Shown: positions 30,752 through 51,111 of the stretch, piece after piece
Position numbering within the stretch: position 1 is the first letter of the stretch
Layout: each line of letters begins with the position of its first letter
Translations under genes and position numbers: made by a program
Notes under the pieces: model-generated
Databases searched by the model: none
What the model saw: the letters and a program-made list of their open reading frames with translations, nothing else
Told to the model about the DNA's origin: nothing
Source of the DNA: an uncultured Defluviitaleaceae bacterium
GTDB taxonomy: Bacteria; Bacillota; Clostridia; Lachnospirales; WRBF01
Length of the DNA stretch: 64,000 nucleotides
Direction of reading: 5' to 3'
Assembly (NCBI GenBank): GCA_964533945.1
Contig: CAZHPA010000005.1
Span: 18,213 to 82,212, forward strand

Positions 30752-30844
30752 AAAATACCCCCAAGCTCTAAAAATATAAACAACCTAAAAAGGCAATCAA
30801 AGACTGCCTTTTTGTTAATTTGAATTAAATTTTTAATTAAGATT

Positions 30845-31552: not shown

Positions 31553-31635
31553 ACACTAATTCCCCTTTAATCTATATTTTTATTAAGAATTTAAAAGCCG
31601 AAAAGCCGACTTCCAAAAAAGGCAGTCGGCTTTAA

Positions 31636-31709
31636 CGTACGCAAAAGGATTTGAACCCTCGACCTTCTGGTCCGTAGCCAGACGCTCTATCCAGCTGAGC
31701 TATGCGTAC
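31636..31709 (-). tRNA. tRNA-Arg, anticodon ACG
   Basis: The reverse complement folds as acceptor gtacgca/tgcgtac, anticodon stem tctgg/ccaga, loop ctACGga, T loop ttcaaat. Confidence 0.9.
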
Positions 31710-31990
31710 ATATTGCATTAATTACTACATATGGCACGAACGAATAAAAGACGTTCGGTTGCTATGAATTGCTACAACGTTTAATATTATAGCACATGAA
31801 AAATGTGTTGGCAACAGCTTTTACACAAAATATTTATTTTCATCATAATACATAAAATATTATATAAATATAGGCGTAATATGTTAGTATTTACTAATAT
31901 AATATTTTTAATTTTAAAATACTTATATACAAATGTAAAAAAATATGATACTTTTGTTAAGAATATACATTAAGTTTAGGAGGGGAATGT

Positions 31991-34900
31991 GTGGGGAAGA
32001 AATTTTTTAGCCTTTTGTTATCTTTAATAATGGTTTTTGGAGTTTTTAATGTTACAGCATTTTCTAATATTGAAAATGTTGAAACAATTATTAATGATTT
32101 TACAATAGGCGACAACATTAATCAATTTAAGTTTTACGGAAATTGGGGTACAAGCACAGGCTACCCTGATAGCTTTTATAATGGTGATGAACATTGGACA
32201 AGAAGAACAGATGACCAAACTACAATGTCGTACACAATTAGGTTTTTTGGGAACGGAATTAAAGTTTATGGCAATAAAGACGTTGCACATGGAGTTGCAA
32301 ACGTTAGCATTGACAGCGGAGAAGTTTTTGAAGTTGATTTAAGCAATTCAACAAGACTTTCTAAAGTGTTATTATTTGAAGTTTTGGATTTAGAAGAAGG
32401 CGAGCACACTTTAACTTTTGTGGGTGCAAATAAGCGTGGGCAATTTAGCGACGCAACAGGAATGGCGCTTCAAGTTGATTATGCAGTTATTTTACACAAG
32501 CCTTATGTTGCAACCGATATTTTAATTGATGAGCATATTAATATGTTTGAGTTAGGTGAAAAACAGCTTACGTTTTCTGTTGTTCCAAGTTTTGCTTCAG
32601 TATCAGACATAGCTTATTTGTCGGAAGATGAAAATATTGCAAAAGTTTCTTCAAGCGGTGTTGTTACAGGCGTTTCGCAAGGGACTACAGCAATTACAAT
32701 TTCTTCTGCAGCTGCAGGAATAAGCAAAACTGTTAAAATTAATGTGCTTAAAGCACCAAGTGCAGCTCATGTTATAGTTGGTAACAGTAACATTCACTAT
32801 ACGCAAAACTTATATGAACAAGTTGTTAATACTATAAATAACATAGAAAAAGCTTATGCGTGGAAAAACGACAAAATAAATTCTGAATTAGTTATTGCAT
32901 CAATACAGCCTTTAACTAACGTTACTGTTACGGCAAGCGATTTTATATCAAATGCACAAACTTTATCTAAAGACAGTATTAAAGTTAACTACATAAAAGA
33001 AGTTAAAGGAAATCCGGCATATGGAATGGGTGTTGAACCCAAACCGCTATTTCCCGATATAATTGATACCGACGGCAATACACCAATTAACATAGCTGCA
33101 AATAGGCTTCAACCTGTTTGGATTGAAATTAATACACCTAAAAATGCAAAGGCAGGAATTTATAGTGGGAAAATTTTTGTTAGTGCAGCAGAGCTTTTAG
33201 AGCCTATTGAAATTAATTACACACTTGAAATTTTAGACATAACCATGCCGGAAACAAGTGAATATAGCTTATCAATTGAGGCGTGGCAATATCCAGACAG
33301 CGTTGCAGCACACTACCAAGTTGCGCCGTGGTCTGAAGAGCATATTAACATACTTAAAAAACAAGCGATTATGGCTAAAGAATTTGCTTCAAACCAAATA
33401 ACCGTACCTTTAGTTGATACTCCGTGGATTTCAGCCGGAGGCATAGACCAAACATACACTCCAACATCTGGAATGGTTAAGTGGGTTAAAGCGGCAAACG
33501 GAACATTAACATTCGATTTTTCAATTATGGATAAATGGATTGAGCTTAACATGGAAACTGGAAATGTTGATAAAATTGCACTTTTTGGAATGATTCCTTG
33601 GTCTACTCCATACTCATTTTATGATGCTAATAACAATAAAACTATAGAGCATATAAGCGTTGGAAGTGCTAGGTGGGTTGAAGTTTGGACGGCTTTTCTT
33701 GAAGCTTTTGTGCCCCATATGGAACAAAAAGGCTGGTTTAATAAATGCTATATGGCAGCAGACGAAAGAAGTAAAGAACAAATGCTTGCAATGATTAACT
33801 TAATTGCCAAATTTCCTAGTTTGGATGGAAAAATACTTAAAAAATCATTCGCTCTTGACCATTTCGACGGAGAATACGCAAGCGTTTCTGCTGAAGCAGA
33901 TGCCGTTTTTGTTGGATATAGTGCAGTAGCAAACAACACTTCTGCGTATGAAGCATTTAAAAATATGCGTGAGGCAAGCAGCGAAAAGCAATATACAACA
34001 GGTATATACACTTGCACAGGAATGTTTCCGAATAGTTTTACATATAGTATGCCTGGTGAAAGCTATTACACTATGCTTTATACGGGAGCCAAAGGCGCAA
34101 ACGGCTATTTACGTTGGGCTTTAGACGCATATGTAGCAGACCCTTTGCGTGATACATCGCACAGACTTTTTGAATCCGGCGATTGCTTTTTAATATATCC
34201 TGATGAAGTGCAAAATAAGTTAAACCCAACAACAAAATTTTCCGTTAGACTAAGAAAGTTAATAGAAGGAAATAGCGATGTTAACAAACTTAGATATATT
34301 GCAAAAAATTCGGAAGTTTTAAAAGAAGACGTTAGCAAAGTTTTTGCAAGTGTTAAAAATGGGTATTCTCAAACAGGTGGCGGCAATGCTTCTGCCGAAA
34401 CTAAAGCTTTACTTCCTTCTGATATGGATAAAATAAAACAGCAAATTTTTGAGATTTCTAAAAAATATGAAGCTATTAATCCTGATAATAATGAGCAAAT
34501 GAAGCTGGAAGTATTTAATGCAAAAGGCACGCTTGGCAAAGAAGTTGTTGTAACAGTTAAATTATTAAATAATAGCGGAGTTAGCTCAGGAAGATTTAGG
34601 CTTTTATATGACAATTCTAAATTAACCCCTATTTCATATGAAAAATTTGGAATGTTTGATAGCAATGTATTTACTTCAAACATTGACAGCGGCGCAAGTC
34701 TTGAAAGTCTTGAATTTGTTACTTTTGCTTGGGGAAATAGCTTTGATGTATTTGATAATGGAGAAATAAAAATTAAGTTTAAAATAAGCGATAAAGCTAA
34801 TGTTACATTAATTCCTATCACTATAGGATATACAGACTTTTCAAATGATGCTTATGAAAAAATTGATGTTTTATGTGTTGATGGTGAAGTTGAAGTTACA

Positions 34901-35107
34901 GACATTCTTTATGGAGATATTTATGAAGACGGCGTTGTTAATGCTAGAGACTTAACAAGGCTTTTGCAATATCTTGCCCATTGGAACATTGAACTTTCTG
35001 AAAGAGAATTACAAGCAGCAGACGTATGCAAAGATGGAGAAATTAACGGAAACGACTTAGTAAGGCTTTTGCAGTATTTGGCTGAATGGGATGTTTTGCT
35101 TGGATAA
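31991..35107 (+). CDS. secreted DUF4091-type glycoside-hydrolase-like protein with N-terminal CBM-like domain, Big_2 domain, C-terminal cohesin-like module and dockerin
   Basis: GTG start after TAGGAGGGG; signal peptide; Big_2 (VVTGVSQGTTAITIS). Cohesin-like nt ~34499-34893. Dockerin nt 34910-35104: YGDIYEDGVVNARDLTRLLQYLA ... DVCKDGEINGNDLVRLLQYLA. Confidence 0.75.
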   Translation: MGKKFFSLLLSLIMVFGVFNVTAFSNIENVETIINDFTIGDNINQFKFYGNWGTSTGYPDSFYNGDEHWTRRTDDQTTMSYTIRFFGNGIKVYGNKDVAHGVANVSIDSGEVFEVDLSNSTRLSKVLLFEVLDLEEGEHTLTFVGANKRGQFSDATGMALQVDYAVILHKPYVATDILIDEHINMFELGEKQLTFSVVPSFASVSDIAYLSEDENIAKVSSSGVVTGVSQGTTAITISSAAAGISKTVKINVLKAPSAAHVIVGNSNIHYTQNLYEQVVNTINNIEKAYAWKNDKINSELVIASIQPLTNVTVTASDFISNAQTLSKDSIKVNYIKEVKGNPAYGMGVEPKPLFPDIIDTDGNTPINIAANRLQPVWIEINTPKNAKAGIYSGKIFVSAAELLEPIEINYTLEILDITMPETSEYSLSIEAWQYPDSVAAHYQVAPWSEEHINILKKQAIMAKEFASNQITVPLVDTPWISAGGIDQTYTPTSGMVKWVKAANGTLTFDFSIMDKWIELNMETGNVDKIALFGMIPWSTPYSFYDANNNKTIEHISVGSARWVEVWTAFLEAFVPHMEQKGWFNKCYMAADERSKEQMLAMINLIAKFPSLDGKILKKSFALDHFDGEYASVSAEADAVFVGYSAVANNTSAYEAFKNMREASSEKQYTTGIYTCTGMFPNSFTYSMPGESYYTMLYTGAKGANGYLRWALDAYVADPLRDTSHRLFESGDCFLIYPDEVQNKLNPTTKFSVRLRKLIEGNSDVNKLRYIAKNSEVLKEDVSKVFASVKNGYSQTGGGNASAETKALLPSDMDKIKQQIFEISKKYEAINPDNNEQMKLEVFNAKGTLGKEVVVTVKLLNNSGVSSGRFRLLYDNSKLTPISYEKFGMFDSNVFTSNIDSGASLESLEFVTFAWGNSFDVFDNGEIKIKFKISDKANVTLIPITIGYTDFSNDAYEKIDVLCVDGEVEVTDILYGDIYEDGVVNARDLTRLLQYLAHWNIELSERELQAADVCKDGEINGNDLVRLLQYLAEWDVLLG

Positions 35108-35178
35108 TATTAATTGTTTTATTTCAAGCAGATTATATAATTAGAAAATAAACCTCTTCATAAATTACTTTAAACTAA

Positions 35179-35225
35179 AACCCTGTAAATATGACTTTGT
35201 CATACTACAGGGTTCCTTTTATTTT
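35179..35225. terminator. bidirectional rho-independent terminator between DUF4091 gene and murP
   Basis: aaccctgta...tacagggtt outer stem extended to ~17 bp, followed by ccttttatttt. Confidence 0.65.
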
Positions 35226-35251
35226 AGTACTGTTTTACTAATACCATTAGG

Positions 35252-36676
35252 CTAAACATTTGCAACTAAATCGTCTTTTATAAATAAATAAGTAATTAAA
35301 AATCCGCCAATATAAGAAATTAAAATACCTATTGTATAATTAAGCATAGAACCCGGCTGCATTAACGGAATTGCAACTATCCCTGAAGGTCCCCATGCTG
35401 TTGCCATTACCTTAGTTAGCATTACATAAGCACCACCAAAACCTGCGCCTAATCCAGCTGTTATAAATGGTTTTCCAAGAGGAAGTGTTACACCATAAAT
35501 AAGCGGTTCGCCAACGCCTAAAATACCTGCAGGAAGTGCGCCTGTTATAACTTGTTTAATTCTTACGTTATTAACTTTTTTAGCTTTTAAATATATAGCT
35601 ATAGCTGCTCCAACTTGCCCTGCCCCTGCCATTGCCAAAACAGGAAATAGTGATACGCCGCCCATTTGTTCAAGTTGTACTGCATAAATTGGTATAAGCC
35701 CGTGATGCAGCCCCAAAAGAACCATTGGTAAAAATGCTGCTGATAACACATAGCCAGAAATTACACTTACAACAGGGTTTTGAGAATTAATAATAACGCT
35801 TAACGCTGCCACAAGCCAATCGGATACAAAGCCCGAAATTGGCATTATTGCAAAGACAAATACTACACCAACTATAATTAAGCTTAAAAGCGGAGTTACT
35901 ATTAAATCTAAAACATCGGGAGTTCTTTTTCTTATAAATTTTTCTACTTTTGCAAGAACCCAAACGCCTACTACAACACCTATAATACCGCCTTTTCCTG
36001 TTGTTAATATTGATTTAAGGGCGTTGTCTGCGTTATATAGCCCAACCATTTCTGAAATTTGATTAATTTGCGCCATTATTGACATTGCGCCAACCATACC
36101 GCCCAATGCTTCTGTTGCGCCGAATTTTTTAGCTGAATTTACGCCTGTGAATATTGCAAAATAGCTTAAAAATGAACCGCCTGCAAGCCCGCACATAAGC
36201 TTTGTTAAGCTCCAGAAAGTGCTTTCAGCACTTAATGCACCTGTGTTTTGCATTGTTCCAAGAAGGCTTGAAAGACCGTTAAAAATACCGGCAGCTATAA
36301 TTGCAGGTATGAGAGGAATAAAAATTTCGCCGATTGTTCTTAAAGCGCTTTTAAGAGGGTTTTCTTTTTGTGCGCTTTTTAAGGCGGTTTTATTTTCTTT
36401 CCAATCATCTGTTACGGCTGCATCTCTTGTTAGGTTAAACTCTTCAACCATTGTGTCGCATAGTTTTTTTGCTTTTCCGGGTCCAACAATAATTTGTGTT
36501 GTTACGCCTTCAACTAAACCTAAAACTCCTTGTGTATTTTTAATACCTTGAAAATCAGCTTTTGCGTTGTCTTTTAATTTAATTCTAAGCCTTGTCATAC
36601 AATTTGTTATTGTTTGTATATTTTCTTTTCCGCCGCAAAGATTAAGAATAATTTTGCCAAGTTCGCTATTTGTCAT
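35252..36676 (-). CDS. murP: PTS EIIBC component, probably N-acetylmuramic acid specific
   Basis: ATG 36676 after GAGGTG. EIIB motif NCMTRLR and a multi-TM EIIC. Specificity is inferred from the murQ/murR/mupG neighbours. Confidence 0.8.
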   Translation of the reverse strand: MTNSELGKIILNLCGGKENIQTITNCMTRLRIKLKDNAKADFQGIKNTQGVLGLVEGVTTQIIVGPGKAKKLCDTMVEEFNLTRDAAVTDDWKENKTALKSAQKENPLKSALRTIGEIFIPLIPAIIAAGIFNGLSSLLGTMQNTGALSAESTFWSLTKLMCGLAGGSFLSYFAIFTGVNSAKKFGATEALGGMVGAMSIMAQINQISEMVGLYNADNALKSILTTGKGGIIGVVVGVWVLAKVEKFIRKRTPDVLDLIVTPLLSLIIVGVVFVFAIMPISGFVSDWLVAALSVIINSQNPVVSVISGYVLSAAFLPMVLLGLHHGLIPIYAVQLEQMGGVSLFPVLAMAGAGQVGAAIAIYLKAKKVNNVRIKQVITGALPAGILGVGEPLIYGVTLPLGKPFITAGLGAGFGGAYVMLTKVMATAWGPSGIVAIPLMQPGSMLNYTIGILISYIGGFLITYLFIKDDLVANV

Positions 36677-36724
36677 GATTTTACACCTCACTTTTTTTAT
36701 GTTATGCCCTACAAATTAAATAAA

Positions 36725-37633
36725 CTAAATAATTGCTTTTCTAATATGTCCGCTTGCATTATTAAGTTTTTCTTTGGCAGCTTCTGCACTACAATTTAAA
36801 AGTATCATTACAATTGCAAGTTTAGCGCTTCCTTCAGCTTCTTGTAATTTTTGCTTTGCCGTTTCTCTATCGGTATCTGTTGCAGACATTACAATATTTT
36901 CTGCACGGGTTTTTAATTTTTCATTAGTTTGCATTACATCTACCATAAAGTTTTTATATACTTTTCCGAATCCAACCATAGAAGCGGTTGAAATCATGTT
37001 AAGTATCATTTTTTGTGCTGTTCCGGCTTTAAGCCTTGTTGAACCTGTTAAAACTTCGGGTCCTGTTACAGCTTCGATTTTAAGCTTTGCATATTGCCCA
37101 ATTTTTGAATTATCGTTGCAAGAAATAGATACAGTTTTGCAGCCTAACGAGTTTGCATATTCTAATCCTGCGCAAATATAAGGAGTTCTTCCGCTTGCGG
37201 CAATTCCTATAACTGTGTCTTTGTTATTTAAATTAATTGCTTTTAATTCAGAAACGCCTAATTCTAGGCTATCTTCAGCACCTTCCACAGCTTTAATAAA
37301 AGCTTTTTCGCCTCCGGCTATTAACCCTACTACAAGTTCTGGTGAAACCCCAAACGTTGGTGGGCATTCGGCAGCATCTAAAACACCAAGCCTTCCACTT
37401 GTTCCTGCGCCCATATAAATTAGCCGTCCGCCTGCCTCAAAAGATTGCGTTGCCCATTTAGCAGCTTCTGCTATTTCAGGCAAAACTCCTTCTATTACTT
37501 TTGCAATTTTTGCATCTTCGCTGTTCATTACTGTTACTATTTCCAAATGGCTCATTGCATCAAGGTTTTTTGTTAATTCGTTCTGGGTTTCGGTTGCCAT
37601 ACCTTTTAAATCAACCATTACCATGCCCCCCAT
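36725..37633 (-). CDS. murQ: N-acetylmuramic acid 6-phosphate etherase
   Basis: SIS domain, GAGTSGRLGVLDAAECPPTFG signature. TAATG overlap with murR; an alternative ATG at 37618 sits behind a GGGGGG run. Confidence 0.9.
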   Translation of the reverse strand: MGGMVMVDLKGMATETQNELTKNLDAMSHLEIVTVMNSEDAKIAKVIEGVLPEIAEAAKWATQSFEAGGRLIYMGAGTSGRLGVLDAAECPPTFGVSPELVVGLIAGGEKAFIKAVEGAEDSLELGVSELKAINLNNKDTVIGIAASGRTPYICAGLEYANSLGCKTVSISCNDNSKIGQYAKLKIEAVTGPEVLTGSTRLKAGTAQKMILNMISTASMVGFGKVYKNFMVDVMQTNEKLKTRAENIVMSATDTDRETAKQKLQEAEGSAKLAIVMILLNCSAEAAKEKLNNASGHIRKAII

Positions 37634-38475
37634 TATTTTGGTTTATATATATGTGTTCTTGAAAGTTGTTTAACAGAATATTCATATTGGCTATTTGCGA
37701 ACGCTGTATACAATATATCTATTATATTAAGTTGAGAAATTCTTGAAGACATAGCGCCACTTCTAAAAATTGATTCGTTTGCTGCAACATAAAGTGAATA
37801 GTCGCTATATTCCGATATTGCAGTTAATCCATATTTTACTATAGTAATTACTGGCGCTCCCGATTCTCTTGCGGCTTTGGCACATTCAATCATTTCGATT
37901 GTTTGGCCTGAATATGTTATTATTATTGCAACGTCATCTTTACGCATATTTCGTGCCTGCAAAAGCTGTGCGTGCCAATCTTCGCTTATTACACAAGGTT
38001 TATTTAACCTTAAAAACTTTAAATAGGCATCTTTTGCAACAAGCAATGAAGAACCTACGCCAAAAAGGCATATGCTTCTGCAATTAATAATTAATTTAAC
38101 ACAGCTTTCTAAAGTTTTTAAATTTGTTAAGTCTTTTGTGTTTTCAAGGCAAACTACATTTTTATAAGTTACCTTTTCAACTATGTCGGTTAGGCTATCG
38201 TGGCGTGTTATTTCTTTTTTTTCGGCAAATTGATTTTGCTTGCCAAGTGCAAGCTCACAAATCATAACTTTACGAAAATCTTTATACCCGTCGAATCCTA
38301 ATTTTTTACAAAGCCTTATTATCGAGGCAGCTGAAGCAAATGTATGCTCTGAAAGCTTATGTATGTTATCGTCAGCTACAAGCTCGGCGTTTTCTAAAAT
38401 GTATTTTATTATTGAAGCTTCAGTTGGGCTTGCATTTTTCTTATATGCATTAAGCCTTGCAAAAACGCTCTTCAT
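37633..38475 (-). CDS. murR: MurR/RpiR-family transcriptional regulator
   Basis: N-terminal HTH_6 plus C-terminal SIS domain pattern. Confidence 0.85.
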   Translation of the reverse strand: MKSVFARLNAYKKNASPTEASIIKYILENAELVADDNIHKLSEHTFASAASIIRLCKKLGFDGYKDFRKVMICELALGKQNQFAEKKEITRHDSLTDIVEKVTYKNVVCLENTKDLTNLKTLESCVKLIINCRSICLFGVGSSLLVAKDAYLKFLRLNKPCVISEDWHAQLLQARNMRKDDVAIIITYSGQTIEMIECAKAARESGAPVITIVKYGLTAISEYSDYSLYVAANESIFRSGAMSSRISQLNIIDILYTAFANSQYEYSVKQLSRTHIYKPK

Positions 38476-38559
38476 TTTTCCTCCTCCCCACTTAAGCTAC
38501 ACATACTTTGTTGAACTTTGTTTATAATTTAATTTTAAATTATGTAAACATAGTTTGCA

Positions 38560-38593
38560 ATTGAAATTATTAATTATGAAACTAAATTTCAAT
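38560..38593. promoter_or_regulatory. inverted repeat ATTGAAAT-N18-ATTTCAAT in the murR/mupG divergent intergenic region (candidate operator)
   Basis: Read directly; location between divergent MurNAc genes. Confidence 0.25.
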
Positions 38594-38760
38594 ACTTTGA
38601 AACGGTCTAAGTAATATATTATAATGTTGCTGTATTTTACGTAGTGCGTTTTATGCAAAATATACTAAATACTGAAACTTGCATATAATAAATTTTATTG
38701 ATATGAAATACATTTAATGATATAATTTATTAAAATTTAACAAACAATGGTGATAATAAT

Positions 38761-39807
38761 ATGTTTGGACGTTCTGTTTATTTATCTTCTTTCGACGATG
38801 AAAATATAAAAGAAAATTTAAAAAAATTAAAGCCGGGGTTTGTCTTTAGCTCATTTCATATAAGCGAAGAATTTAGCCATAGCTATTGTTTAAAAGCGAA
38901 AGAAATGTGCCTATGGCTTTGTGAAAATGGGTTTGAAATAATTGCGGATGTTTCTAAAAAGACTTTAGAAAAATTTAACTGCAAAAGCTTATTACATTTT
39001 GCGGATGAAATGAATATTTCGGTTTTACGAATTGACTATGGGTTTACACATGAAGAAATAAAAAATGCTGCAAAAAGTATGCCTGTTGCAGTTAATGCAT
39101 CTACAGTTGATAATGAAATTGCAAAAGACATCTTGAATTCTGGAAGTTTCGAAAAAGACGTTTATGCTATACATAATTTTTATCCAAGACCGGAAACAGG
39201 GCTTGATGTTGAATTTTTCAACAACTTGAATTTTAAATTAAAAGGCGATGGAATTAAAGTTTTAGCTTTTATTGCCGGAGATGAAAATTTAAGAGCCCCT
39301 ATTTATAAAGGACTTCCAACTTTGGAAAAGCACAGAAATGTTTTACCTTATATAGCATTTTTAGATATGATTAAAAACTACAGCATTGACCATGTTTTAT
39401 TGGGCGACCCCGGAATTTCAAATTTGCAGGCAAATTTAATAGATGAATATTTATCAACGGGCGTTATTTGCATTCCTTGCTGTATTGATGATGAATTTAA
39501 AGAGCTTTACGGGAAAACATTTACAATTAGATACGACAGCCCTTCAAGCATTGCTAGATTTTTAGAAAGCCGTGAATACAGCACTTTTGGAAAAGTTATA
39601 AATCCTAGAAACTGCATCGAAAGAAAACGTGGTAGCATTACTATTGACAATATAGGTTATGCTAGGTATTCGGGGGAAATTCAGCTTGTTAAGCGTGATT
39701 TTGGAGCGAATAAAAATGTTAATGTTATTGGAAAAGTTAAAGAGGAATATTTAGGGCTTTTAGATTGCTTAATGAATGGGGAAAAATTCAAATTAATTGG
39801 AGTTTGA
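38761..39807 (+). CDS. mupG: DUF871-family 6-phospho-N-acetylmuramidase
   Basis: 348 aa, MFGRSVYLSSF start typical of DUF871, context with murQ/murP. Confidence 0.75.
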   Translation: MFGRSVYLSSFDDENIKENLKKLKPGFVFSSFHISEEFSHSYCLKAKEMCLWLCENGFEIIADVSKKTLEKFNCKSLLHFADEMNISVLRIDYGFTHEEIKNAAKSMPVAVNASTVDNEIAKDILNSGSFEKDVYAIHNFYPRPETGLDVEFFNNLNFKLKGDGIKVLAFIAGDENLRAPIYKGLPTLEKHRNVLPYIAFLDMIKNYSIDHVLLGDPGISNLQANLIDEYLSTGVICIPCCIDDEFKELYGKTFTIRYDSPSSIARFLESREYSTFGKVINPRNCIERKRGSITIDNIGYARYSGEIQLVKRDFGANKNVNVIGKVKEEYLGLLDCLMNGEKFKLIGV

Positions 39808-39810
39808 TAT

Positions 39811-40042
39811 TTAAAGCTTAACATTATAAGGTTAGCAGACATTCAAAAGCCAAGTGCCTGTCGTATTTTATGTTAGTTGTTTAAAGCTTGACATTTTAAG
39901 ACAGACAGACGTTCAAAGAACGAACGTCTGTTGCGTGTTATCTTTATTACTTCTAAAACCTGACATTATAAGGTTGACAGACGCTCAAAAACCGAGCGTT
40001 TGCCGTGTGTTATTCCTATTGTTTCTAAAACCTGACATTTTA
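39811..40042. repeat. tandem array of ~3.3 degenerate 70-72-bp units, each containing a 9-bp-stem hairpin
   Basis: Units start near 39811, 39881, 39954 and 40026. The (t/c)t(g/a)acatt core recurs at 39818, 39888, 39960 and 40032. Hairpins lie at 39836-39860, 39906-39930 and 39978-40002. Confidence 0.85.
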
Positions 40043-40067
40043 TTGACGTTTTTTAGCATGTTTTTTA

Positions 40068-40076
40068 TGTTATAAT
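40068..40076 (+). promoter_or_regulatory. extended -10 promoter element TGtTATAAT (with TTGACG at 40043)
   Basis: tgttataat at 40068-40076. The TTGACG at 40043-40048 is 22 nt upstream of TATAAT; the alternative -10 TATGTT sits at 17 nt. Confidence 0.4.
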
Positions 40077-40113
40077 GCTATTGTTAAAAATTATATAAAC
40101 AACTTAATTAATC

Positions 40114-40154
40114 GGGCAGACATTTATATATTAAATGTTTGCCTTTGTTATTTT
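40114..40154 (+). terminator. intrinsic terminator-like hairpin in the leader of the phage-like cluster
   Basis: 11-bp stem ggcagacattt/aaatgtttgcc (one G-T), 7-nt loop, tail tttgttatttt. Confidence 0.55.
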
Positions 40155-40185
40155 AAAAATGTTGCCTTTAAAACGTGGCGGTTTG

Positions 40186-40217
40186 TTGACATTTTTCGAC
40201 ATATTTTTTGTGATAAT
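40186..40217 (+). promoter_or_regulatory. promoter candidate upstream of the RinA-like gene (TTGACA; TGtGATAAT extended -10)
   Basis: TTGACA 40186-40191. TGTGATAAT at 40209-40217; the 20-nt spacer is long, so the extended -10 may act alone. Confidence 0.4.
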
Positions 40218-40258
40218 ATAAAAGCATAGAAAAGGGAAATTAAAAGGAGGAATATTTC

Positions 40259-40678
40259 GTGAAGCTACCTAAAGTTGTTTACAGATATATTGAATACGAA
40301 CTGTTTCACTACGAAGAATATAAAAAGGAATTGTTGCTTGAAAGAGAGAGAATTTTGGAAAGCTACTCGTCATCTATTGGTGCCGAAATTCGTGGAAGCC
40401 AAAAAACCGACGCAACGCAAAGAAAGGTAATTAATCTTATGGAATCGACGGCTGTTTTGTCCCTTGAAAGAAAAATACGGGCTATTGATTATACGCTTGC
40501 AACTCTTTCCAAAACCCATGCTATGCTATTTAACGCATTGTATAACCAAAAAAGAACCGATATTTACAAAATTTGCAATGAGTTATCTATTTCAAAAGAA
40601 ACCTACGCACGCTATAAGCAGCATATAATACACAATGTTGGAAAAGAACTTGGAATTTTCAGTGGTATTGGGGTTTAG
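40259..40678 (+). CDS. RinA-family phage late-gene transcriptional activator
   Basis: GTG after AAAAGGAGG. YRYIEYELFHYEEYKKEL start and 139-aa size are typical of RinA/ArpU-type regulators placed just before terS. Confidence 0.65.
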   Translation: MKLPKVVYRYIEYELFHYEEYKKELLLERERILESYSSSIGAEIRGSQKTDATQRKVINLMESTAVLSLERKIRAIDYTLATLSKTHAMLFNALYNQKRTDIYKICNELSISKETYARYKQHIIHNVGKELGIFSGIGV

Positions 40679-40704
40679 AAAACTTAAAAGAGAGAGGTGG
40701 TGGA

Positions 40705-41331
40705 ATGCCTAAGAAAAAAGAAACCAATAAGCAGCAAGCCGAATTAACGCTTTTTGAAAAAAGCTTTTGCATTAGTTACATTCAAACTTTTAATGCAACG
40801 CAAGCAGCATTAAACGCTGGCTGTTCAATTGCCGACGCATATGAAACCGGACAGCACTTATTGCAAACACCCCGCATTAAAGCTGAAATTGAAAAGCTTA
40901 AAGAAATTAAAAGCGAAATGCTTGTATTTGATAAAGAAGACATACTTTTAAAGCAGATGAAAATAGCATTTGCCGACATTACAGATTTTGTGCAATTTGG
41001 AACAGAGGAAGTTGTAGTTGTCGATAAAAAAACTAACGAACCTCAAACTAAATTAATTAATTCTGTTTACTTGAAAGATTCCAAAAAGGTTGATGGTGGA
41101 ATTATTGATGAAGTTTACTGCACATCAACGGGTGTTGCAAGAATTAAGCTTGCCGACAGGCAAAAAGCTTTAGATTGGCTTTCTAAATATTTTAAAATGT
41201 ATCCTCTTGATGAGCATAAAATCGAGTACGACAGGCAGAAGCTTCTTACTGAAAAGAAAGGAAAACACGAACCGATTGAAATAAATATCAAAACGGCTAA
41301 ACCCAAAGAAGAAGAGGGAGAAAATCAATGA
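40705..41331 (+). CDS. terminase small subunit
   Basis: FCISYIQTFNATQAALNAGCS HTH pattern (Terminase_2 type), position before terL. Confidence 0.8.
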   Translation: MPKKKETNKQQAELTLFEKSFCISYIQTFNATQAALNAGCSIADAYETGQHLLQTPRIKAEIEKLKEIKSEMLVFDKEDILLKQMKIAFADITDFVQFGTEEVVVVDKKTNEPQTKLINSVYLKDSKKVDGGIIDEVYCTSTGVARIKLADRQKALDWLSKYFKMYPLDEHKIEYDRQKLLTEKKGKHEPIEINIKTAKPKEEEGENQ

Positions 41332-42567
41332 ATGAATAAGCTAATTAATCCTCATTTTGAACATTATTTGCATGATTGGCAACATAAATTTTATTTTTTA
41401 GTCGGGGGTTACGGTTCGTCTAAAAGCTATCATACTGCTTTAAAAATTGTTTTAAAGCTTTTGCAAGAAAAGCGAACAGCTTTAGTTGTGCGTCAAGTTT
41501 TTGATACACTTAGAAATAGTTGCTTTTCATTGCTTTGCGAAATAATAGACGAACTTATGCTTGATGAGTATGTTAGCTATACCGTTTCCCCTATTCAAAT
41601 TAAGTTTTCAAATGGTTCGGTTATATTGTTTAAAGGAATGGACAGACCAGAAAAGCTTAAATCTATTAACAACGTTACAATTGCTTGGCTTGAAGAATGT
41701 GCAGAACTTTCATATGGGGGATTTAAAGAAATTTTAGGAAGACTTAGGCACAAAACATTGCCGCTTCACTTTATTTTAACAACTAACCCTGTTGGCAAAA
41801 ATAATTGGGTTTACGAGCATTTTTTCATTAAGCTTAAAAATATACCTGCCAATTTTGAACAGCTGCTTTATGAAAGAAAAGAAATTTCGGTTGGAAATAT
41901 GTACTTTAATCATTCAACGGTTGAAGATAATTTATTTGTTCAAGATGAATATGTTAAACAGCTTGATGAACTTTTAGAATACGACCCCGATTTATACCGC
42001 ATTGCAAGAGAGGGAAAGTTTGGAGTATGCACAAACGTTGTCCTTCCTCAATTTAAAATAGCTAGGCATTACGAAGTTATTGAAGCTATTAATAATTGCG
42101 AAAATATAGTTAGGCGTGTTGGTATGGATTTTGGCTTTGAAACAAGCTATAACGCCGTTGTTAGAATGGCGATTGACGAGCAGAGCAAGGTTTTATACAT
42201 ATATTGGGAATATTATAAAAACAAAATGACAGACGATAAAACAGCATTAGAGCTTTCGGAATTTAAAGTTACAAAAGAGCTGATTTTTGCAGATTGTGCC
42301 GAACCTAAAACTATTATGTATTTTAGGCAGCAAGGCTTTAAAATGATTGGCGCTAAAAAATTTCAAGGAAGCAGGCTTGAAAATTTAAAAAAGGTTAAAC
42401 GCTTTAAACAAATTATTTGTTCTGAAAATTGCATTAATACAATTAAAGAACTTTCCGAATTAACTTATGCTAAAGATAAAAACGGATTTATTATTCAAGA
42501 CAAGTTCAACATTGACCCTCATACTTTAAGCGCTATTTGGTATGGGCTTGAAGGGGTTAAAATTTAA
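41332..42567 (+). CDS. terminase large subunit (PBSX-type)
   Basis: Walker A-like [15 protein letters not shown] Walker B-like, 411 aa. Confidence 0.88.
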
Positions 42568-42608
42568 TATGGGTGGTGGGCGGGATTAAAACAAAAGGAG
42601 GTGGCAAA

Positions 42609-44030
42609 ATGGACTACATGGACAGCATAAAAACCGAACTTAGCGGCATTTATGGGGAAGAAGTTTTAAAAGATTTATCGGAAATAATTCGCCTTTATGG
42701 AATGTATGACGGAGCAGGACAAAATTGGAGCATTGGACAACCCCTTGACTATATACCTACAAAAAAACGTACTAATTTTATTAAGAAGCTAATTAAAGAA
42801 GAAGCAAGGTTTTTGTTTGGAAAGACCCCTGAATTTACTTTTATTTCAAAAAGCGGACAAGATGTTTCTGGTGTTGAAGCATTTGTTAATAGAGCGCTTG
42901 AGGAAAATTTGTTTTCTGAAAAAATTGTTAAAGCTGCAAGAGATTGTTTTATAGGTAAAAGAGTTGCTGTTAAGCTATCGTATGCAGAAGATGAAGAAAT
43001 GCCTATCAAAATTAACTTTGTTCCGTCGCTTGGATTTGTGTTTTCGCCTTACGATGACGATATTGACAAGCTGCAATCAATAATTTTCTTTCACGGGCTA
43101 AATGATAAGTCAATGAAAGGCGAGCAGCGCATTTGGAAACAAAAGTATTGGATTGAAAACGGGCGCTGCTTTTTAGATGAAGGTGTTTACAATGGCTACG
43201 GTCAGTTGATTGAAAAACGTTTTAACAAACTTGATACAGGGCTTACGTTTATACCAGCAAAAGTTATTGTTAATGACGGCTTAACAGGAGATTTGAAAGG
43301 TGAAAGTGACGTTGCGGAAATTGTTGAACTGCAAAATGTTTATAATAGAATTTCAAGCGATGATATTGATGCGCTTAAATTTAATATGTTTCCGCAAACC
43401 GTTGCCGTTAACGCAAGCGAAGACAGTCTAAACCGCATAAGTATATGCCCTTCGGCTTTAATTGATTTGCAACCCGAATATACAACCGGAGATGCCATAC
43501 CTCAGCTTTATAAGCTTGAATCTAGTTTCAGCTATGACACAAGGGCAGAAAACGTTTTAAACAGGTTAAAAAGTGATATGCATGAACTTTTAAGCATTCC
43601 CAATCTAAGCCATAATGAACTTAGGTCTTTTGTTGCAAGCGGAAAAACATTAAAAGCTTTATATTGGCAACTTACAACACGCTGCGAGGAAAAGTTTTCC
43701 GCTTGGCGGCCTGCTTTAGTTTGGCTTGCTAAAAGCATTTTAAAAATGGGACAGCTTCATAATCTTTTTGAATTTGACATTCCTAAAGATTTATCAATTG
43801 ACGCTATAAACATCTACCCATTGCTTCAAGATGAACTTGATGAAAAGAAATCGGACATTGAAGCTGTTACACAAGGTGCTATGAGCAAAAAAGCTTATAT
43901 TAAAAAATGGAACAAAGACTATAATGACTTAATGGCAGAAAAGGAAATTACAGAAATTAAAAAAGACTATATTGACTTAGCGTCAGAAACAGCAGAAGAA
44001 AATTTAGAAGTTAAAGAGGAGGTGGAATAA
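42609..44030 (+). CDS. portal protein (SPP1 gp6-like)
   Basis: ATG 42609 after AAAGGAGGTGG; 473 aa directly after terL. Confidence 0.8.
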   Translation: MDYMDSIKTELSGIYGEEVLKDLSEIIRLYGMYDGAGQNWSIGQPLDYIPTKKRTNFIKKLIKEEARFLFGKTPEFTFISKSGQDVSGVEAFVNRALEENLFSEKIVKAARDCFIGKRVAVKLSYAEDEEMPIKINFVPSLGFVFSPYDDDIDKLQSIIFFHGLNDKSMKGEQRIWKQKYWIENGRCFLDEGVYNGYGQLIEKRFNKLDTGLTFIPAKVIVNDGLTGDLKGESDVAEIVELQNVYNRISSDDIDALKFNMFPQTVAVNASEDSLNRISICPSALIDLQPEYTTGDAIPQLYKLESSFSYDTRAENVLNRLKSDMHELLSIPNLSHNELRSFVASGKTLKALYWQLTTRCEEKFSAWRPALVWLAKSILKMGQLHNLFEFDIPKDLSIDAINIYPLLQDELDEKKSDIEAVTQGAMSKKAYIKKWNKDYNDLMAEKEITEIKKDYIDLASETAEENLEVKEEVE

Positions 44031-44512
44031 TGGACATTGAAGCTTTAAAGCAAATTGGAATTTTAGATGAGCAAGCGGAACAAATTTTATGTATGCACAA
44101 TTTAGCTTTAAAATCAGTTGAGGAACAAGCTGAAAAAAGTCGTTCTGAATTCGAACATAATTTAAAGTTTAAAACTGCACTTGAAAAACAACTTGCAAGT
44201 TCAAAAGCCAGAAATGTGCAGCTTGTAAATTCGCTTTTAGACTATAATGCATTGTCGCTTGGAGATGATGGCGAAATTGTTGGGCTTGCAGAGCAATTAG
44301 AAAAAATTAAAAAAGAAGCGGATTATATGTTTTATGAAGAAACCGAAAAACAGCCCTATGCCTTTACAGGAAGCGTTGGAAGTTTTTTGCGTAAAGACAA
44401 AGATGTTAAAAATCCTTTTGCAAAAGAAAGCTTTAACTTAACAGAGCAAAGTAAAATATTTAAAGAAGACAAAGAGCTTGCGCAAACTATGATAAGGCAG
44501 GCTTCTATTTAG
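44030..44512 (+). CDS. scaffolding protein (GP20-like)
   Basis: TAATG overlap with the portal gene; helical, charged 160-aa protein between portal and capsid. Confidence 0.65.
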   Translation: MDIEALKQIGILDEQAEQILCMHNLALKSVEEQAEKSRSEFEHNLKFKTALEKQLASSKARNVQLVNSLLDYNALSLGDDGEIVGLAEQLEKIKKEADYMFYEETEKQPYAFTGSVGSFLRKDKDVKNPFAKESFNLTEQSKIFKEDKELAQTMIRQASI

Positions 44513-44652
44513 TTAAGTTAGTTAAGACCAAATTAATCAAAAGTAAGTCAATCAAAGCAGAAAACTTTTAAGATTTTAATAAAACAGGCTTCCATATTAA
44601 CAAAATAGCAATCTATCTAAAAATAAAATTAAAATAAAAAGGGGTTTTAAAT

Positions 44653-45615
44653 ATGGTAAATGATTTGTCTGCAATTATTGTTCCTGAACTTTTTGCACCT
44701 TACGTTTCACAGCGAACTATGGAAAAATCGGCGCTTGTGCAATCAGGAATTATAACTCAAAATGCACAGTTCGACTCGCTTGCTTCGCAACCGACAGCAA
44801 TTGTTAATATGCCATTTTTCGAAGATTTAATAGGGGAATCTGAACAAATTATTGAAGGCGCCAGTCTTAACACAACTAAAATTTCCCCAATGAATGACAA
44901 AGCCGCAATAATTAGGCGCGCTAAAATGTGGAGTTCTACTGATTTAACAGCAGCTTTAAGCGGAGCAGACCCATCTGCGGCTATTGCTGAATTGGTTGCC
45001 GGTTTTTGGGTTCGTGATATGCAAAAAGAATTAATTGCAATTTTAAATGGGGCATTTGGTTCTTCAAGTATGGTGGAAAACATTTTAGATATTTCAAACT
45101 TAACAGGAACTGCTGCAAAATGGTCTGGAAGTTCATTCATTGACGCACAGCAGCTTTTAGGAGATGCTTCCGAATATTTAACAGCAGTTGTTATGCACAG
45201 TAAAACAAAATCTGCACTTAAAAAGCAAAACCTTTTAGATTCTATACCTCCTTCTGAAAATGCAGGGTTTGACACGTATCAAGGTGTTAGAGTTATTGTT
45301 GACGACAGTTGTCCTGTTTCCGAAGATGTTTATACATCATATTTATTTGGGCAAGGAGCAATTGCATACGGCAATGGAAACCCAGCAGGCTTTGTTTCAA
45401 TTGAAACAGATAGAGATAAAAAGAAAGGTTCCGGCGTTGACTATTTAATTAGCCGCAAAACTTTTATACTTCACCCAAGGGGAATTAAATTTACATCTGC
45501 AAGCGTTGCATTGCCTGAAGGTCCTTCAAGAGCAGAACTTTCGCTTGACCAAAATTGGATACGTGTTTACGAGCCTAAGCAAGTTAGAATTGTGCAGTTT
45601 AAACATAAGCTATAA
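44653..45615 (+). CDS. major capsid protein
   Basis: 320 aa; N-terminal IVPELFAPYVSQRTMEKSALVQSGI pattern typical of SPP1-gp13-like capsid proteins; position. Confidence 0.8.
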   Translation: MVNDLSAIIVPELFAPYVSQRTMEKSALVQSGIITQNAQFDSLASQPTAIVNMPFFEDLIGESEQIIEGASLNTTKISPMNDKAAIIRRAKMWSSTDLTAALSGADPSAAIAELVAGFWVRDMQKELIAILNGAFGSSSMVENILDISNLTGTAAKWSGSSFIDAQQLLGDASEYLTAVVMHSKTKSALKKQNLLDSIPPSENAGFDTYQGVRVIVDDSCPVSEDVYTSYLFGQGAIAYGNGNPAGFVSIETDRDKKKGSGVDYLISRKTFILHPRGIKFTSASVALPEGPSRAELSLDQNWIRVYEPKQVRIVQFKHKL

Positions 45616-45645
45616 TTTTGGCTAAAACACATAGAGGTGTTATTT

Positions 45646-45930
45646 ATGAATTTACAACAAAGGGAAATTTTAGCCAATCTAAAGCTTAATTTACGTGAGG
45701 AAAAGTTCCCGTGCTTTAGTGACGATGAGCTTACATATGTTTTAAACAAATATAATTTTGATTTAGAGCGAACAACTTATGAATGCTTGGTTATGAAAGC
45801 ACAAGACGATACAATAAGACTTCCTTCAGGACTATCAATTCAAAGCAGCAGAAACTATTGGCTTTCTATTGCTAAGCGGTATCGGCAAAATGCAGGGGGC
45901 AGCATTAAAAGAGAAGGTGAAGAATATTAA
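45646..45930 (+). CDS. head-tail connector / DNA-packaging adaptor protein
   Basis: ATG 45646 after AGAGG; small protein after the capsid gene. Confidence 0.55.
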   Translation: MNLQQREILANLKLNLREEKFPCFSDDELTYVLNKYNFDLERTTYECLVMKAQDDTIRLPSGLSIQSSRNYWLSIAKRYRQNAGGSIKREGEEY

Positions 45931-46303
45931 AGCTAACATTGAATCAATACGGCAAAAAATTAAACGCAGTATTGAAACTTTCTCTAATAAAGTTAAAGTT
46001 TACCGCAACACAAAAAATGAATTTAATGAACCTTTGCCTTTAGAAGAAATTTTTATTGCCGAGATTTTGGGGCAATATTACAAAGGGCAAATGCTTAGAA
46101 TAGGAACAAGCACAAGCACAAAGGGAGCAATTAAAACTGAATATGCCGAAAGGTTTTTGACGATTATCGACCTTAATTCATTAAAGATTAAAGAGGGCGA
46201 TTTTTTTATGCTTAACGGCATTAAATATAAAATTTTTGACTTAGGAAACGTTGAAAACATATATTTTGATTTTTCTATTGTTAGAACATCTTGGAATATT
46301 TGA
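45869..46303 (+). CDS. head-tail joining (head closure) protein; true start probably near 45917-45926
   Basis: Position and size. The track start overlaps the upstream ORF by 62 nt; GTG 45917 or ATT 45926 behind AAGGTGA would give ~126 aa. Confidence 0.55.
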   Translation: MLSGIGKMQGAALKEKVKNIKANIESIRQKIKRSIETFSNKVKVYRNTKNEFNEPLPLEEIFIAEILGQYYKGQMLRIGTSTSTKGAIKTEYAERFLTIIDLNSLKIKEGDFFMLNGIKYKIFDLGNVENIYFDFSIVRTSWNI

Positions 46304-46313
46304 GGTGGTTTTA

Positions 46314-46661
46314 ATGGGTTTAACGCTTAACAGCTTAAAACTTGACAATTTTCTGCAGAGCAGTGAAAACCATGTTAAAGAAGCTATGTACGCTACAGGG
46401 AAAAAAGCCGCTCTTGAGCTTGAAAGTGCTGCTAAATCAAGTGCGCCTTGGTTAGACAGGACAGGGCGTGCGCGGCGTAGCTTAACGGGCGAATGTACTA
46501 TAGACGGCAATATGCTTATTATTTCTCTTTATGGCAAAGAAAAGCATTCGGTTCTCCTTGAACTTTGCAAAGAACAAAAGTTTTCTATACTTGCTCCAGC
46601 CATTTACAAAAACTATGAAAACATACTGCATAAAATTACTGCATCTGCTTTTAACCCCTAA
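46314..46661 (+). CDS. HK97 gp10-like tail-connector protein
   Basis: ATG 46314 after GAGGTGG; APWLDRTGRARRSL resembles the gp10-family P.dTG.Lr.S motif. Confidence 0.6.
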   Translation: MGLTLNSLKLDNFLQSSENHVKEAMYATGKKAALELESAAKSSAPWLDRTGRARRSLTGECTIDGNMLIISLYGKEKHSVLLELCKEQKFSILAPAIYKNYENILHKITASAFNP

Positions 46662-46688
46662 AGCCTTTGCTTTAGGGGTTTGCTATTA
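46655..46688 (+). terminator. terminator-like hairpin between head-completion and tail genes
   Basis: 10-bp perfect stem cccctaaagc/gctttagggg (46655-46678), 4-nt loop, tail tttgctatt. Confidence 0.5.
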
Positions 46689-47054
46689 AAGAAAAAAGGA
46701 GGGGGGAAATTTACGTTTAAAAAAATATATATGTTGCTTAAAGAAAATGGATTTAACGTTTATTCTATAGGGCAGCATGAAGGAATTTGCAACGAGCCTT
46801 ATGTTGTAATTGGCGAAAACGGGCAATTCCCGTTTTCAAAGCCTCAAATTGTATATAGCATCGTTGACATTATGCTATTTTACCCTATAGGAAAATATAC
46901 GGAATTTTCAGATTTTGTTGAAGCAGTTAGAGAATGCTTGAAGCAAATTCGAGAGTTGAAAAATATGTGCGAAATGAGTGCAATTGTTATAGACCACGAG
47001 TTAAAAGCATATACGCAAACTATTAAGTATCAGGTTTATAAAAGGAGGGCGTAG
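46680..47054 (+). CDS. tail completion/terminator-like protein (start uncertain: TTG 46680 or ATG 46731)
   Basis: Position before the major tail gene. A strong AAGGAGGGGGG lies inside the 5-prime end of the track ORF. Confidence 0.5.
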   Translation: MLLKKKGGGKFTFKKIYMLLKENGFNVYSIGQHEGICNEPYVVIGENGQFPFSKPQIVYSIVDIMLFYPIGKYTEFSDFVEAVRECLKQIRELKNMCEMSAIVIDHELKAYTQTIKYQVYKRRA

Positions 47055-47056
47055 CT

Positions 47057-47599
47057 ATGGTAATTGAAAAAGCTTTAACAGGAGTTGCATTAGTTGTTTT
47101 AAAAGATAAAAAAAATAAAACCTATTCTTTTACAACGGCAACGATGGCTAATGCAAAAGTTAATATTGAAGAAGGCAAAAAGACAGAGCTTATAATTAAA
47201 GGCGTACTTAAAGCTCAAAAGAAATTTGATTCAACAATTAAAGGTGTTGATGTTGAATTTCAAGATAATATGTTTTTGCCCGAAGTTGTTGCATTACTTC
47301 AAGGCGGAACTGTTGAAAAAGATACTCAAGGAAGGTTTGTTAAATATACACCTATACCAGCAGGAACTGCACCAAACCTTGAAAGCTTTGATGTTGAAAT
47401 TTATACAGAAGAAACAGACACAAGCGGTCAAACGCTTAGGTATGCCAAATTAACACTTCCAAACGGAAAAGGGGAGCCTGTGGAACTTAACTTTGAAGAT
47501 GATAAGTTTTTTTCGGCAAAATATGTTATTAAAACGTATCCAGCGTATGGCGAGCCACCTTATAAAATAGAAATGGTTACTAGCTTGCCTGCAATTTAA
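47057..47599 (+). CDS. major tail protein
   Basis: 180 aa, located immediately before the chaperone/tape-measure genes. Confidence 0.7.
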   Translation: MVIEKALTGVALVVLKDKKNKTYSFTTATMANAKVNIEEGKKTELIIKGVLKAQKKFDSTIKGVDVEFQDNMFLPEVVALLQGGTVEKDTQGRFVKYTPIPAGTAPNLESFDVEIYTEETDTSGQTLRYAKLTLPNGKGEPVELNFEDDKFFSAKYVIKTYPAYGEPPYKIEMVTSLPAI

Positions 47600-47635
47600 T
47601 AAAATATTGCTATATCAAAAGAAAGGGGGAACAAT

Positions 47636-48034
47636 ATGGAGTTAAATAAAATAGCACAAGGAGAAGTTGTTAAACTTTCGCCTTTTATTTCAGATGAACC
47701 ATTTGTTGTTAGGCTAAAGCGTCCATCACTGTTACAGCTTGCAGCAAGCGGAAAAATTCCAAATCCGCTTTTAGGTGTTGCAGAACAGCTTTTTAATGGC
47801 AACTTTAGCAATTCTAAGCAAAACATTAAAGAAACAGCAGAATTTCTTTTGCTTATTGCCAAAAACGCTTTAGTTTTTCCAACATTCGATGAGCTTTGCG
47901 AAAAAGAAATTAATTTAACAGATTTACAGCTAATTGAAATTTTTAACTACACACAAATGGGAGTTAAAGCTTTGGAAAATTTTCGTGGCTTCAAAGGAAG
48001 TTATGAGAATACTGACGCTTTGCATGACATATAA
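47636..48034 (+). CDS. tail assembly chaperone (XkdN-like)
   Basis: LKRPSLLQLAASGKIPNPLLGVAEQLF motif; position before the tape measure gene. Confidence 0.7.
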   Translation: MELNKIAQGEVVKLSPFISDEPFVVRLKRPSLLQLAASGKIPNPLLGVAEQLFNGNFSNSKQNIKETAEFLLLIAKNALVFPTFDELCEKEINLTDLQLIEIFNYTQMGVKALENFRGFKGSYENTDALHDI

Positions 48035-48200
48035 AACAAAACCCAGCGAAATTTTAAAGCTTGATGATGAATATACCGCCTTTTGCTTTGATGAAGCGCT
48101 AAGCTATATTTTGAATGAGCTTTTAAAACAAAATGGCAAAATCCCAAAATGGGATAATCGAAGCGATAATTTAATTTCATTTTTGCTAAATGGACTTTGA
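48003..48200 (+). CDS. second tail-chaperone ORF (gpT-like part), overlapping the 3-prime end of 47636-48034 in the +1 frame
   Basis: The ORF is open from 47934. An internal ATG at 48003 follows AAAGGAAG. PSEILKLDDEYTAFCFDEAL resembles the C-terminal extensions of chaperone frameshift products. Confidence 0.5.
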   Translation: MRILTLCMTYKTKPSEILKLDDEYTAFCFDEALSYILNELLKQNGKIPKWDNRSDNLISFLLNGL

Positions 48201-48209
48201 GGTGGTTTT

Positions 48210-51108: not shown

Positions 51109-51111
51109 GCG

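Follow-up and report, generated by a model that had tools for sequence, protein, structure and literature searches.

Predicted modular control region between mupG and a rinA-led phage-like gene cluster in an uncultured Defluviitaleaceae bacterium

The tandem repeat array that follows mupG appears to be only the upstream half of a larger control region and no separate element. In the window, i.e., the whole 64-kb stretch of DNA analyzed, mupG is separated from a rinA-family gene by a spacer of about 452 bp (39808–40258), which, as its sequence reads, is pieced together from about six related ~72-bp modules. Their order is B-T, B-T, B-T, B-P1, T, B'-P2, where B is a box, T is a terminator-type stem-loop, P is a promoter, and B' is a degenerate box. 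A module would consist of a ~19-bp box with a −35-like hexamer (TTTAAAGCTTGACATTTTAAG) and one of two endings, either a stem-loop with a T-rich tail (terminator type; U1, U2, U3, and U5) or an extended −10 element (promoter type; U4 = P1 and U6 = P2). The units very probably originated by duplication and share homology with a conserved promoter. The chances are about even that the array forms the upstream half of the control region of the rinA-led particle/lysis operon and that its serial tandem duplicates have been kept as insulators and docking boxes. Taken separately, an insulator role of the stem-loops is plausible, if somewhat short of likely, and a docking role of the boxes is a tentative and rather doubtful proposal. 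A preliminary description of this DNA had listed four candidate roles for the array and chosen none.

Locus and modular organization of the spacer

The genes and the ribosome-binding site that bound the spacer are as follows.

38761–39807, forward strand: mupG, 6-phospho-N-acetylmuramidase (Pfam MupG_N, 4e-57; MupG_C, 1e-25)
40244–40250, forward strand: ribosome-binding site AAGGAGG, preceding the rinA-family gene
40259 (GTG start)–40678, forward strand: rinA-family gene (TIGR01636, E = 8e-16; PHROG transcription regulators)

The array lies downstream of mupG in the same orientation, and a mupG transcript would enter it. Its start 4 nt after the mupG stop, given in the preliminary description, was confirmed (gene end at 39807, first unit at 39812), as was the presence of a RinA-like gene downstream. 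The RinA-family protein scored 58.4 bits against TIGR01636 (cut-off 31.9). Its gene is the first of the phage-like operon and sits directly upstream of terS, with 26 nt between the rinA stop and the terS start. It is followed in order by terS, terL, portal, scaffold, and capsid genes, and then by connector, tail tube, tape-measure, Dit, and tail-protein genes. The 3' part of the cluster contains an M15 endolysin and small ORFs, and a strong terminator at 55589–55624 ends it. Overall, the cluster spans 40259–55624 (15.3 kb); the tape-measure protein is short (364 aa). Housekeeping genes flank it on both sides, mupG on the left and murA-like/housekeeping genes on the right.

The region 40259–55624 resembles a PBSX- or GTA-type particle cluster that has been domesticated. 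With PBSX-type defective prophages and GTA-like clusters it shares genes for packaging, head, tail, and lysis within 15 kb, a single positive regulator, the housekeeping flanks, and the lack of integrase and replication genes, none of which were found in the cluster within the window. It differs from them in that no repressor gene adjoins the cluster in the window and its particle is a predicted one; the likeness concerns the context, not the array. This wider context may be more interesting than the array itself: the 15-kb cluster lacks integrase, repressor, and replication genes, and its relatives occupy different chromosomal sites. The cluster has no flanking repeats, and no repeat of 12 nt or longer is common to the array and the right end of the cluster. 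An att-site scar was ruled out on this ground.

The modules of the spacer are listed below; U1, U2, and U3 correspond to units A, B, and C of the preliminary description.

39812–39881, forward strand: U1, box at 39812–39830 (TTAACA at 39818), decayed stem-loop at 39835–39861, and T-rich tail
39882–39953, forward strand: U2, box at 39882–39900 (TTGACA at 39888), perfect 10-bp inverted repeat at 39905–39914 / 39922–39931, and tail with TGTTATCTT
39954–40025, forward strand: U3, box at 39954–39972 (CTGACA at 39960, TTGACA at 39975), stem-loop at 39978–40002, and tail with TGTGTTATTCC
40026–40097, forward strand: U4, predicted promoter P1, box at 40026–40042 (CTGACA at 40032), TTGACG at 40043–40048, and extended −10 element TGtTATAAT at 40068–40076
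40098–40167, forward strand: U5, degenerate box, then a 13-bp stem at 40114–40144 with TTGTTATTTT, predicted intrinsic terminator or attenuator
40168–40219, forward strand: U6, predicted promoter P2, degenerate box TAAAACGTGGCGGTTTG, TTGACA at 40186–40191, and TGTGATAATAT at 40209–40219

A repeat search returned three units starting at 39812, 39882, and 39954 (extent 39812–40025), with spacings of 70 and 72 bp and 65–74% identity. Tandem Repeats Finder gave a 72-bp period across 39882–40039. The repeat search also found a 17-nt box, TAAARCYTRACATTWTA, in four copies at 39812, 39882, 39954, and 40026, spaced by 70, 72, and 72 bp. In 64 kb the box pattern had four matches vs. 0.66 expected, all of them in the array, in agreement with the earlier claim of one repeated box per unit. 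The earlier count of about 3.3 repeats with periods of 70, 72, and 72 bp holds as three units plus a fourth box, but the array does not end at 40042; related modules run on to the start of rinA. The fourth box had been taken for part of a truncated last unit; instead, it opens a full module, U4, where TTGACG, a T-rich spacer, and TGtTATAAT take the place of the stem-loop.

The elements of the promoter-like TTGACG/TGtTATAAT sequence reported previously are present, but TTGACG stands 22 nt, not 17 nt, upstream of TATAAT (a 17-nt distance separates it from a weaker TATGTT). It also lies 11 bp downstream of CTGACA, and the module includes a conserved transcript start, GTTAAAAATTA. Alignment of U4 with U6 gave a score of 34–36, reached by 0/500 shuffles, so that P1 and P2 are evidently paralogous. 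When U3 + U4 were aligned globally with U5 + U6, end to end, the score was 66, vs. 24 ± 6 for shuffles. The arms of U5, GCAGACATT / GTTTGCC-TTTGTTATT, resemble those of U1 and U3, and U5 is the top terminator-like site in positions 30000–49000 (19 kb). A promoter scan detected no usable −10 element or promoter in U1–U3. The tails of U1 and U3 resemble the −10 region of P1 (27/2000 and 11/2000 shuffles reach the score, respectively), and the U3 tail also resembles that of U5 (7/2000 shuffles). Conservation among U1–U3 is uneven, with 84–89% identity in the box, 78–89% in the left arm, and 57–65% in the tail.

Several other identities were rejected. A 73-codon ORF at 39854–40075 on the forward strand, with the repeated peptide LKxDI(L/I)R.TD.Q...VC.VL.LL, has neither a ribosome-binding site nor a family match and accumulates many amino-acid changes between units; it stays open only because 72 is divisible by three, and is probably no gene. 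A MurR or LexA operator was ruled out, since the murR–mupG spacer has no similar motif. A Cheo-box in unit B was likewise rejected: the resemblance breaks down in the second half-site.

Relatives of rinA and the conserved promoter

RinA homologues are rare: 9 were found in 5.8 billion proteins, and searches of metagenome and viral contigs gave 16 and 6 loci, respectively. Sampling of the source lineage is poor, and the nearest MupG is only 63% identical. Logan contigs L001–L003 are identical to the window and represent one genotype only, hence no within-species variation is visible. In most of the distant homologues, rinA directly follows phage early genes without a spacer. Among the closer relatives, rinA is preceded by an upstream region of its own, and the adjoining host genes differ by lineage. 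These loci, with the coordinates of the promoter that they share, are listed below.

L004: cI/cro-like pair next to rinA; promoter at 4640–4690
L005, L006, L007, and L013: acetyltransferase and uvrB genes next to rinA; promoter at 4738–4790 in L005
L008: tRNA-Ser gene next to rinA; promoter at 2572–2610
L009 and L014: MalT-like gene next to rinA; promoter at 4925–4965 in L009
L045: short contig with RinA 57% identical to that of the window; promoters at 75–106 and 160–204

Alignment of P1 with the promoters upstream of rinA in L005, L008, and L009 gave scores of 46, 50, and 37, each reached by 0/300 shuffles, and the similarity included the transcript start. By these alignments, we regard P1 as orthologous to a promoter that other uncultured Clostridia conserve in front of their rinA homologues. 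In the promoter of the close relatives, the distance between a TTGAC-like hexamer and a TRTG-extended −10 element is 22 nt (not 17 nt), and another hexamer lies 11 bp upstream of the first.

The short contig L045 resembles the window most in layout. Its upstream region consists, in order, of a box GCGAAAAGTTGACATTTTAAAGCACA in two tandem copies, a −10 element, a small terminator-like hairpin with AATTTTTT, and a second, paralogous promoter. The box duplication is 26 bp long, and its copies are identical. The U2 box matched the L045 box with a score of 29, and U6 matched the second L045 promoter (P2) with a score of 38 (0/1000 shuffles in both cases); the box and the promoter–terminator–promoter layout are therefore common to the two lineages. 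Homology of whole units U1–U3 to the upstream regions of L004, L005, L008, and L009 was not significant.

A nhmmer profile of U1–U3 found no further copy in the 64-kb window or in 52 retrieved loci. Within that scope, the dispersed REP-like element considered earlier finds no support, and the unit appears locus-specific. A scan of 185,579 species genomes other than the source genome with exact patterns produced two matches only, both inside guaA genes and attributable to chance. Two patterns (box plus arm; conserved box) searched against viral contigs gave only chance matches in coding sequences, with no RinA homologue near. Comparison of the region with phage records by blastn gave no match. 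When Rfam was searched with 38000–42000 (E-value up to 10), none of the six matches fell within 39808–40056, and all were far below gathering scores; the nearest, AbsR25 (40057–40144), covers only U4/U5. As far as the window, the 52 retrieved loci, and the two scanned collections reach, the array is, by these comparisons, confined to this locus. Orthologues of mupG in L035 and L037 (62–63% identity) are followed by unrelated sequence, with neither an array nor a phage cluster. This excludes a mupG-associated element and indicates that the array belongs to the phage-like cluster, not to mupG.

These searches bear on the least probable group of explanations. One is the chance insertion of a dispersed REP-like or MITE-like repeat; the others are a repeated small-RNA gene and a site of packaging or recombination. 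We consider this group highly improbable. The units do have the form of palindrome-containing intergenic repeats, and a position near the terminase genes would suit a packaging site. However, by pattern, profile, and motif, the 64-kb window and the 52 loci are free of further copies, and exact patterns in the species genomes and viral contigs hit coding genes by chance only. A repeated small RNA, proposed in the preliminary description, finds no support, as U1–U3 have no usable −10 element or promoter and the Rfam result is negative. The packaging or recombination site proposed there likewise finds none: the array and the other end of the cluster have no repeat in common.

Stem-loops and possible insulation

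The predicted stem-loops differ in stability. The fold of U2 has an energy of −17.3 kcal/mol (z = −3.65; 0/200 shuffles), that of U3 has −13.4 kcal/mol (z = −1.96; 7/200 shuffles), and that of U5 has −17.0 kcal/mol (z = −6.1). These three are among the stronger hairpins in 64 kb, and all lie within 240 nt. The hairpin sequences quoted earlier for units B and C were exact, and both folds are stable; the U3 stem comprises 9 bp, including one G–T pair. The pattern CAGACGYTC..GARCGTYTG occurs in the window in units B and C only (0.00 expected). The hairpin attributed to unit A did not stand: two of its pairs are broken, and its fold (−4.3 kcal/mol; z = +0.26; 103/200 shuffles) is no better than that of shuffled sequences.

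Covariation was assessed on a gapless alignment of four hairpins (U1, U2, U3, and U5; 27 columns) with column shuffles (n = 500). In this alignment, 92.5% of cells pair, four pairs are altered on both sides, and G–T pairs also keep pairing. The stem covariation described previously is thus present, but shuffles matched the observed values in 36–84 of 500 trials, so that its presentation as a signature of selection on structure was overstated. With only three to four paralogous copies, too few for such a signature, we consider the covariation suggestive. Template-switch mutation in quasi-palindromes could also yield two-sided changes in stems. The U5 stem is in register with those of U1–U3; its hairpin is only weakly similar to the hairpins of U1, U2, and U3 (133/2000, 370/2000, and 7/2000 shuffles, respectively).

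Within 320 kb, the motif CA[GA]AC[GA][CT]...[AG][CT]GT[CT]TG, which was defined after L005 had been inspected, is limited to U2, U3, U5, and, in the L005 lineage, a 13-bp inverted repeat that precedes P1. The L005 copy aligns in register with the stems of the window, one pair being G–C, G–T, or A–T. A stem motif common to the window and the L005 lineage is suggested by these data.

The stems might also act as DNA, the inverted repeats being operators at which a dimeric repressor silences the operon. Unit B has perfect 10-bp arms, and the similar stem sequence in L005 stands upstream of P1. The window has no repressor gene nearby, and in L004 a cI-like repressor adjoins rinA; both observations are compatible with operators of this kind. 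We nevertheless consider them very unlikely. The half-sites change jointly (G–C to A–T, T–A to C–G), which fits base pairing better than protein contacts, the gap between the arms is 7 nt in the window vs. 22 nt in L005, and the palindromes lie upstream of the promoter core without overlapping it.

In the preferred reading, the stem-loops would stop or weaken transcription arriving on the same strand from mupG, 4 nt upstream, and U5 would additionally halt P1 transcripts. With read-through from mupG blocked and P1 stopped at U5, the lysis-capable operon would fire only from its own regulated promoters. If true, the array would show how a bacterium silences a lethal phage-derived operon directly downstream of an inducible housekeeping gene, namely, by multiplying the operon's own promoter–terminator module.

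A run of T defines an intrinsic terminator. In a scan that demanded a T run of at least 5 in the 8 nt directly 3' of the stem, U5 passed, and U2 and U3, which have no T run, failed. By this definition, only U5 counts as a canonical intrinsic terminator, and we do not class U1–U3 as such. The stacked insulator terminators proposed in the preliminary description remain viable. Stacked rho-independent insulators likewise consist of serial stem-loops that separate a gene from the operon following it on that strand; U2, U3, and U5 are strong hairpins in a cluster, U5 being canonical and the best terminator in 19 kb; and in L045 a terminator-like hairpin also lies between the two promoters. In phage phi11, the RinA-dependent late promoter is shielded by a terminator against transcription from upstream (PMC3152322). 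The region departs from stacked terminators in the missing T runs of U2 and U3, in the decay of U1, and in the promoter-derived box that the units also carry. Furthermore, the homologous hairpin in L005 stands between divergent genes, where shielding from an upstream gene is not needed.

The same decay may be read in another way, the units being leftovers of tandem duplications of the promoter region that are decaying without present function. Their identity of only 65–74%, the decayed −10-like tails, the broken U1 hairpin, the absence of T runs in U2 and U3, and the non-significant covariation all agree with this, and the identical 26-bp box duplication in L045 indicates that such duplications arise readily in these regions. 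Still, the divergence is uneven, with the box and left arm conserved and the tail not, and 9/9 pairs of the U2 and U3 stems survive ~26% divergence (a rough chance estimate is ~0.03 under even decay). Bacterial genomes also tend to shed useless DNA. We consider a purely neutral relic unlikely.

The explanation by insulators and docking boxes is supported by the reality of U1–U3 and the fourth box and their occurrence only here in the window, by the conservation of P1 in L005, L008, and L009, by the tandem box and terminator-split promoter pair of L045, and by the better conservation of the box and left arm compared to the tail. Against it stand the covariation, which is not significant with four copies, and the low similarity of U5 to the U1–U3 hairpins.

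Boxes and possible late-activator control

The repeated boxes may be extra docking sites for a reader of the −35-like hexamer, either region 4 of the RNA polymerase sigma factor or a sigma-4-like RinA. Contact with the −35 element is made by sigma region 4. AlphaFold predicted the RinA-like protein, with good confidence (mean pLDDT 81.7), to be all-helical, and Foldseek matches of its C-terminal half were dominated by sigma-factor region 4 (probability up to 0.99, target TM-score 0.65–0.76, E-value at least 0.28). A sequence search of PDB chains with RinA returned nothing meaningful.

Relative to the inferred P1 start, the boxes lie at about −265, −195, −123, and −51, with TTGACG at −40. Four boxes at these positions could form a platform to which the RinA-family protein, or another late activator, binds and switches on P1/P2. 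The multi-site binding platform suggested in the preliminary description therefore stays viable: relatives conserve a promoter whose −35-like element is this box, and L045 has the box in tandem copies. Within the unit, no part is better conserved than the box. Two hexamers stand 11 bp apart in all close relatives, the proximal one 22 nt from the −10 element, which is too far for sigma-A alone, and the predicted C-terminal domain of the RinA-like protein resembles a −35-binding domain (E-value at least 0.28, as above). Late activators described in the literature bind direct-repeat arrays that precede late promoters, and RinA depends on sequence >155 bp upstream (PMC13123087, PMC3152322). Since rinA is the first gene of the operon, such a platform would mean positive autoregulation.

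Several features weaken this possibility. Known activator repeats fall within about −110 to −30 and have a short period, whereas here the period is 70–72 bp, or ~6.8 helical turns, so that successive boxes are out of phase. Published targets of RinA are downstream of rinA, not upstream. In addition, TTGACA is the sigma-A −35 consensus, and the conservation of the box may reflect promoter ancestry alone. On balance, we regard the activator platform as fairly unlikely.

The array region is best filed as a variation on the known control architecture of phage late operons, as judged by analogy with two systems. The first is the RinA late operon of phi11/80alpha, in which a RinA-family regulator likewise lies directly upstream of terS, terL, morphogenesis, and lysis genes, and which also has a long control region and a terminator (Ferrer et al., 2011; PMC3152322). 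The phi11 control region spans 272 bp, and sequence well upstream of the start site is required (PMC3152322). In the window, by comparison, the promoters are upstream of rinA, not in the 26 nt between rinA and terS, which places rinA within the operon that it may control. Also different are the construction of the region from 72-bp tandem modules and a cluster without early or lysogeny genes.

The second system comprises the binding sites of the late activators Alt of TP901-1 and Ltr of Phi13, which bind four direct repeats (summarized in PMC13123087). Both there and here, about four imperfect direct repeats (n = 4 for the P1 boxes) lie upstream of a late promoter in a phage cluster of Gram-positive bacteria. 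The known repeats are short and extend from about −107 to −32, whereas the candidate sites in the window are 70–72 bp apart, reach about −265, and each have a stem-loop. Only the CTGACA/TTGACG pair (−51/−40) is close to P1, and the close packing of late-activator sites is not found in the array.

A further, rather improbable elaboration is a self-amplifying switch, in which RinA would bind the boxes and activate its own operon, the stem-loops would hold basal and read-through transcription under a threshold, and amplification of the module would tune commitment to lysis. Boxes 22 nt from the −10 element would then be beyond the reach of sigma-A and would be read by the sigma-4-like RinA. Tandem amplification, by 72 bp in the window and by 26 and 96 bp in L045, would serve as an evolutionary knob for the rarity of lysis commitment. 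The conserved cis-element TTGACATTTT, with its partner at 11 bp and its 22-nt gap to the −10 element, could offer a handle on recognition by the RinA family, which is still poorly defined.

Minor features were recorded at the relatives and in the window. In L009, a 1.2-kb non-coding stretch upstream of the rinA homologue contains a very long inverted repeat (3972–4338; arms of 143 nt, 76% complementary, and 81 nt apart), and a perfect palindrome with 17-nt arms (4862–4895) stands just before the promoter. In L004, the 310-nt leader that leads from the conserved promoter to rinA includes a CAA/CAACAA repeat run (caataacaataacaacaacaacaacaacaac; 4798–4830). The tRNA-Ser (GGA) gene of L008 (2252–2341, reverse strand) has a sigma-70-region-4 gene on one side and rinA on the other, lies about 230 nt upstream of the conserved promoter, and may be an integration site or element boundary. 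The window itself contains a cluster of tRNA genes for Leu-AAG, Gly-GCC, and Gln-TTG on the forward strand and tRNA-Arg (ACG) on the reverse strand, at 9415–9692 and 31635–31710, respectively.
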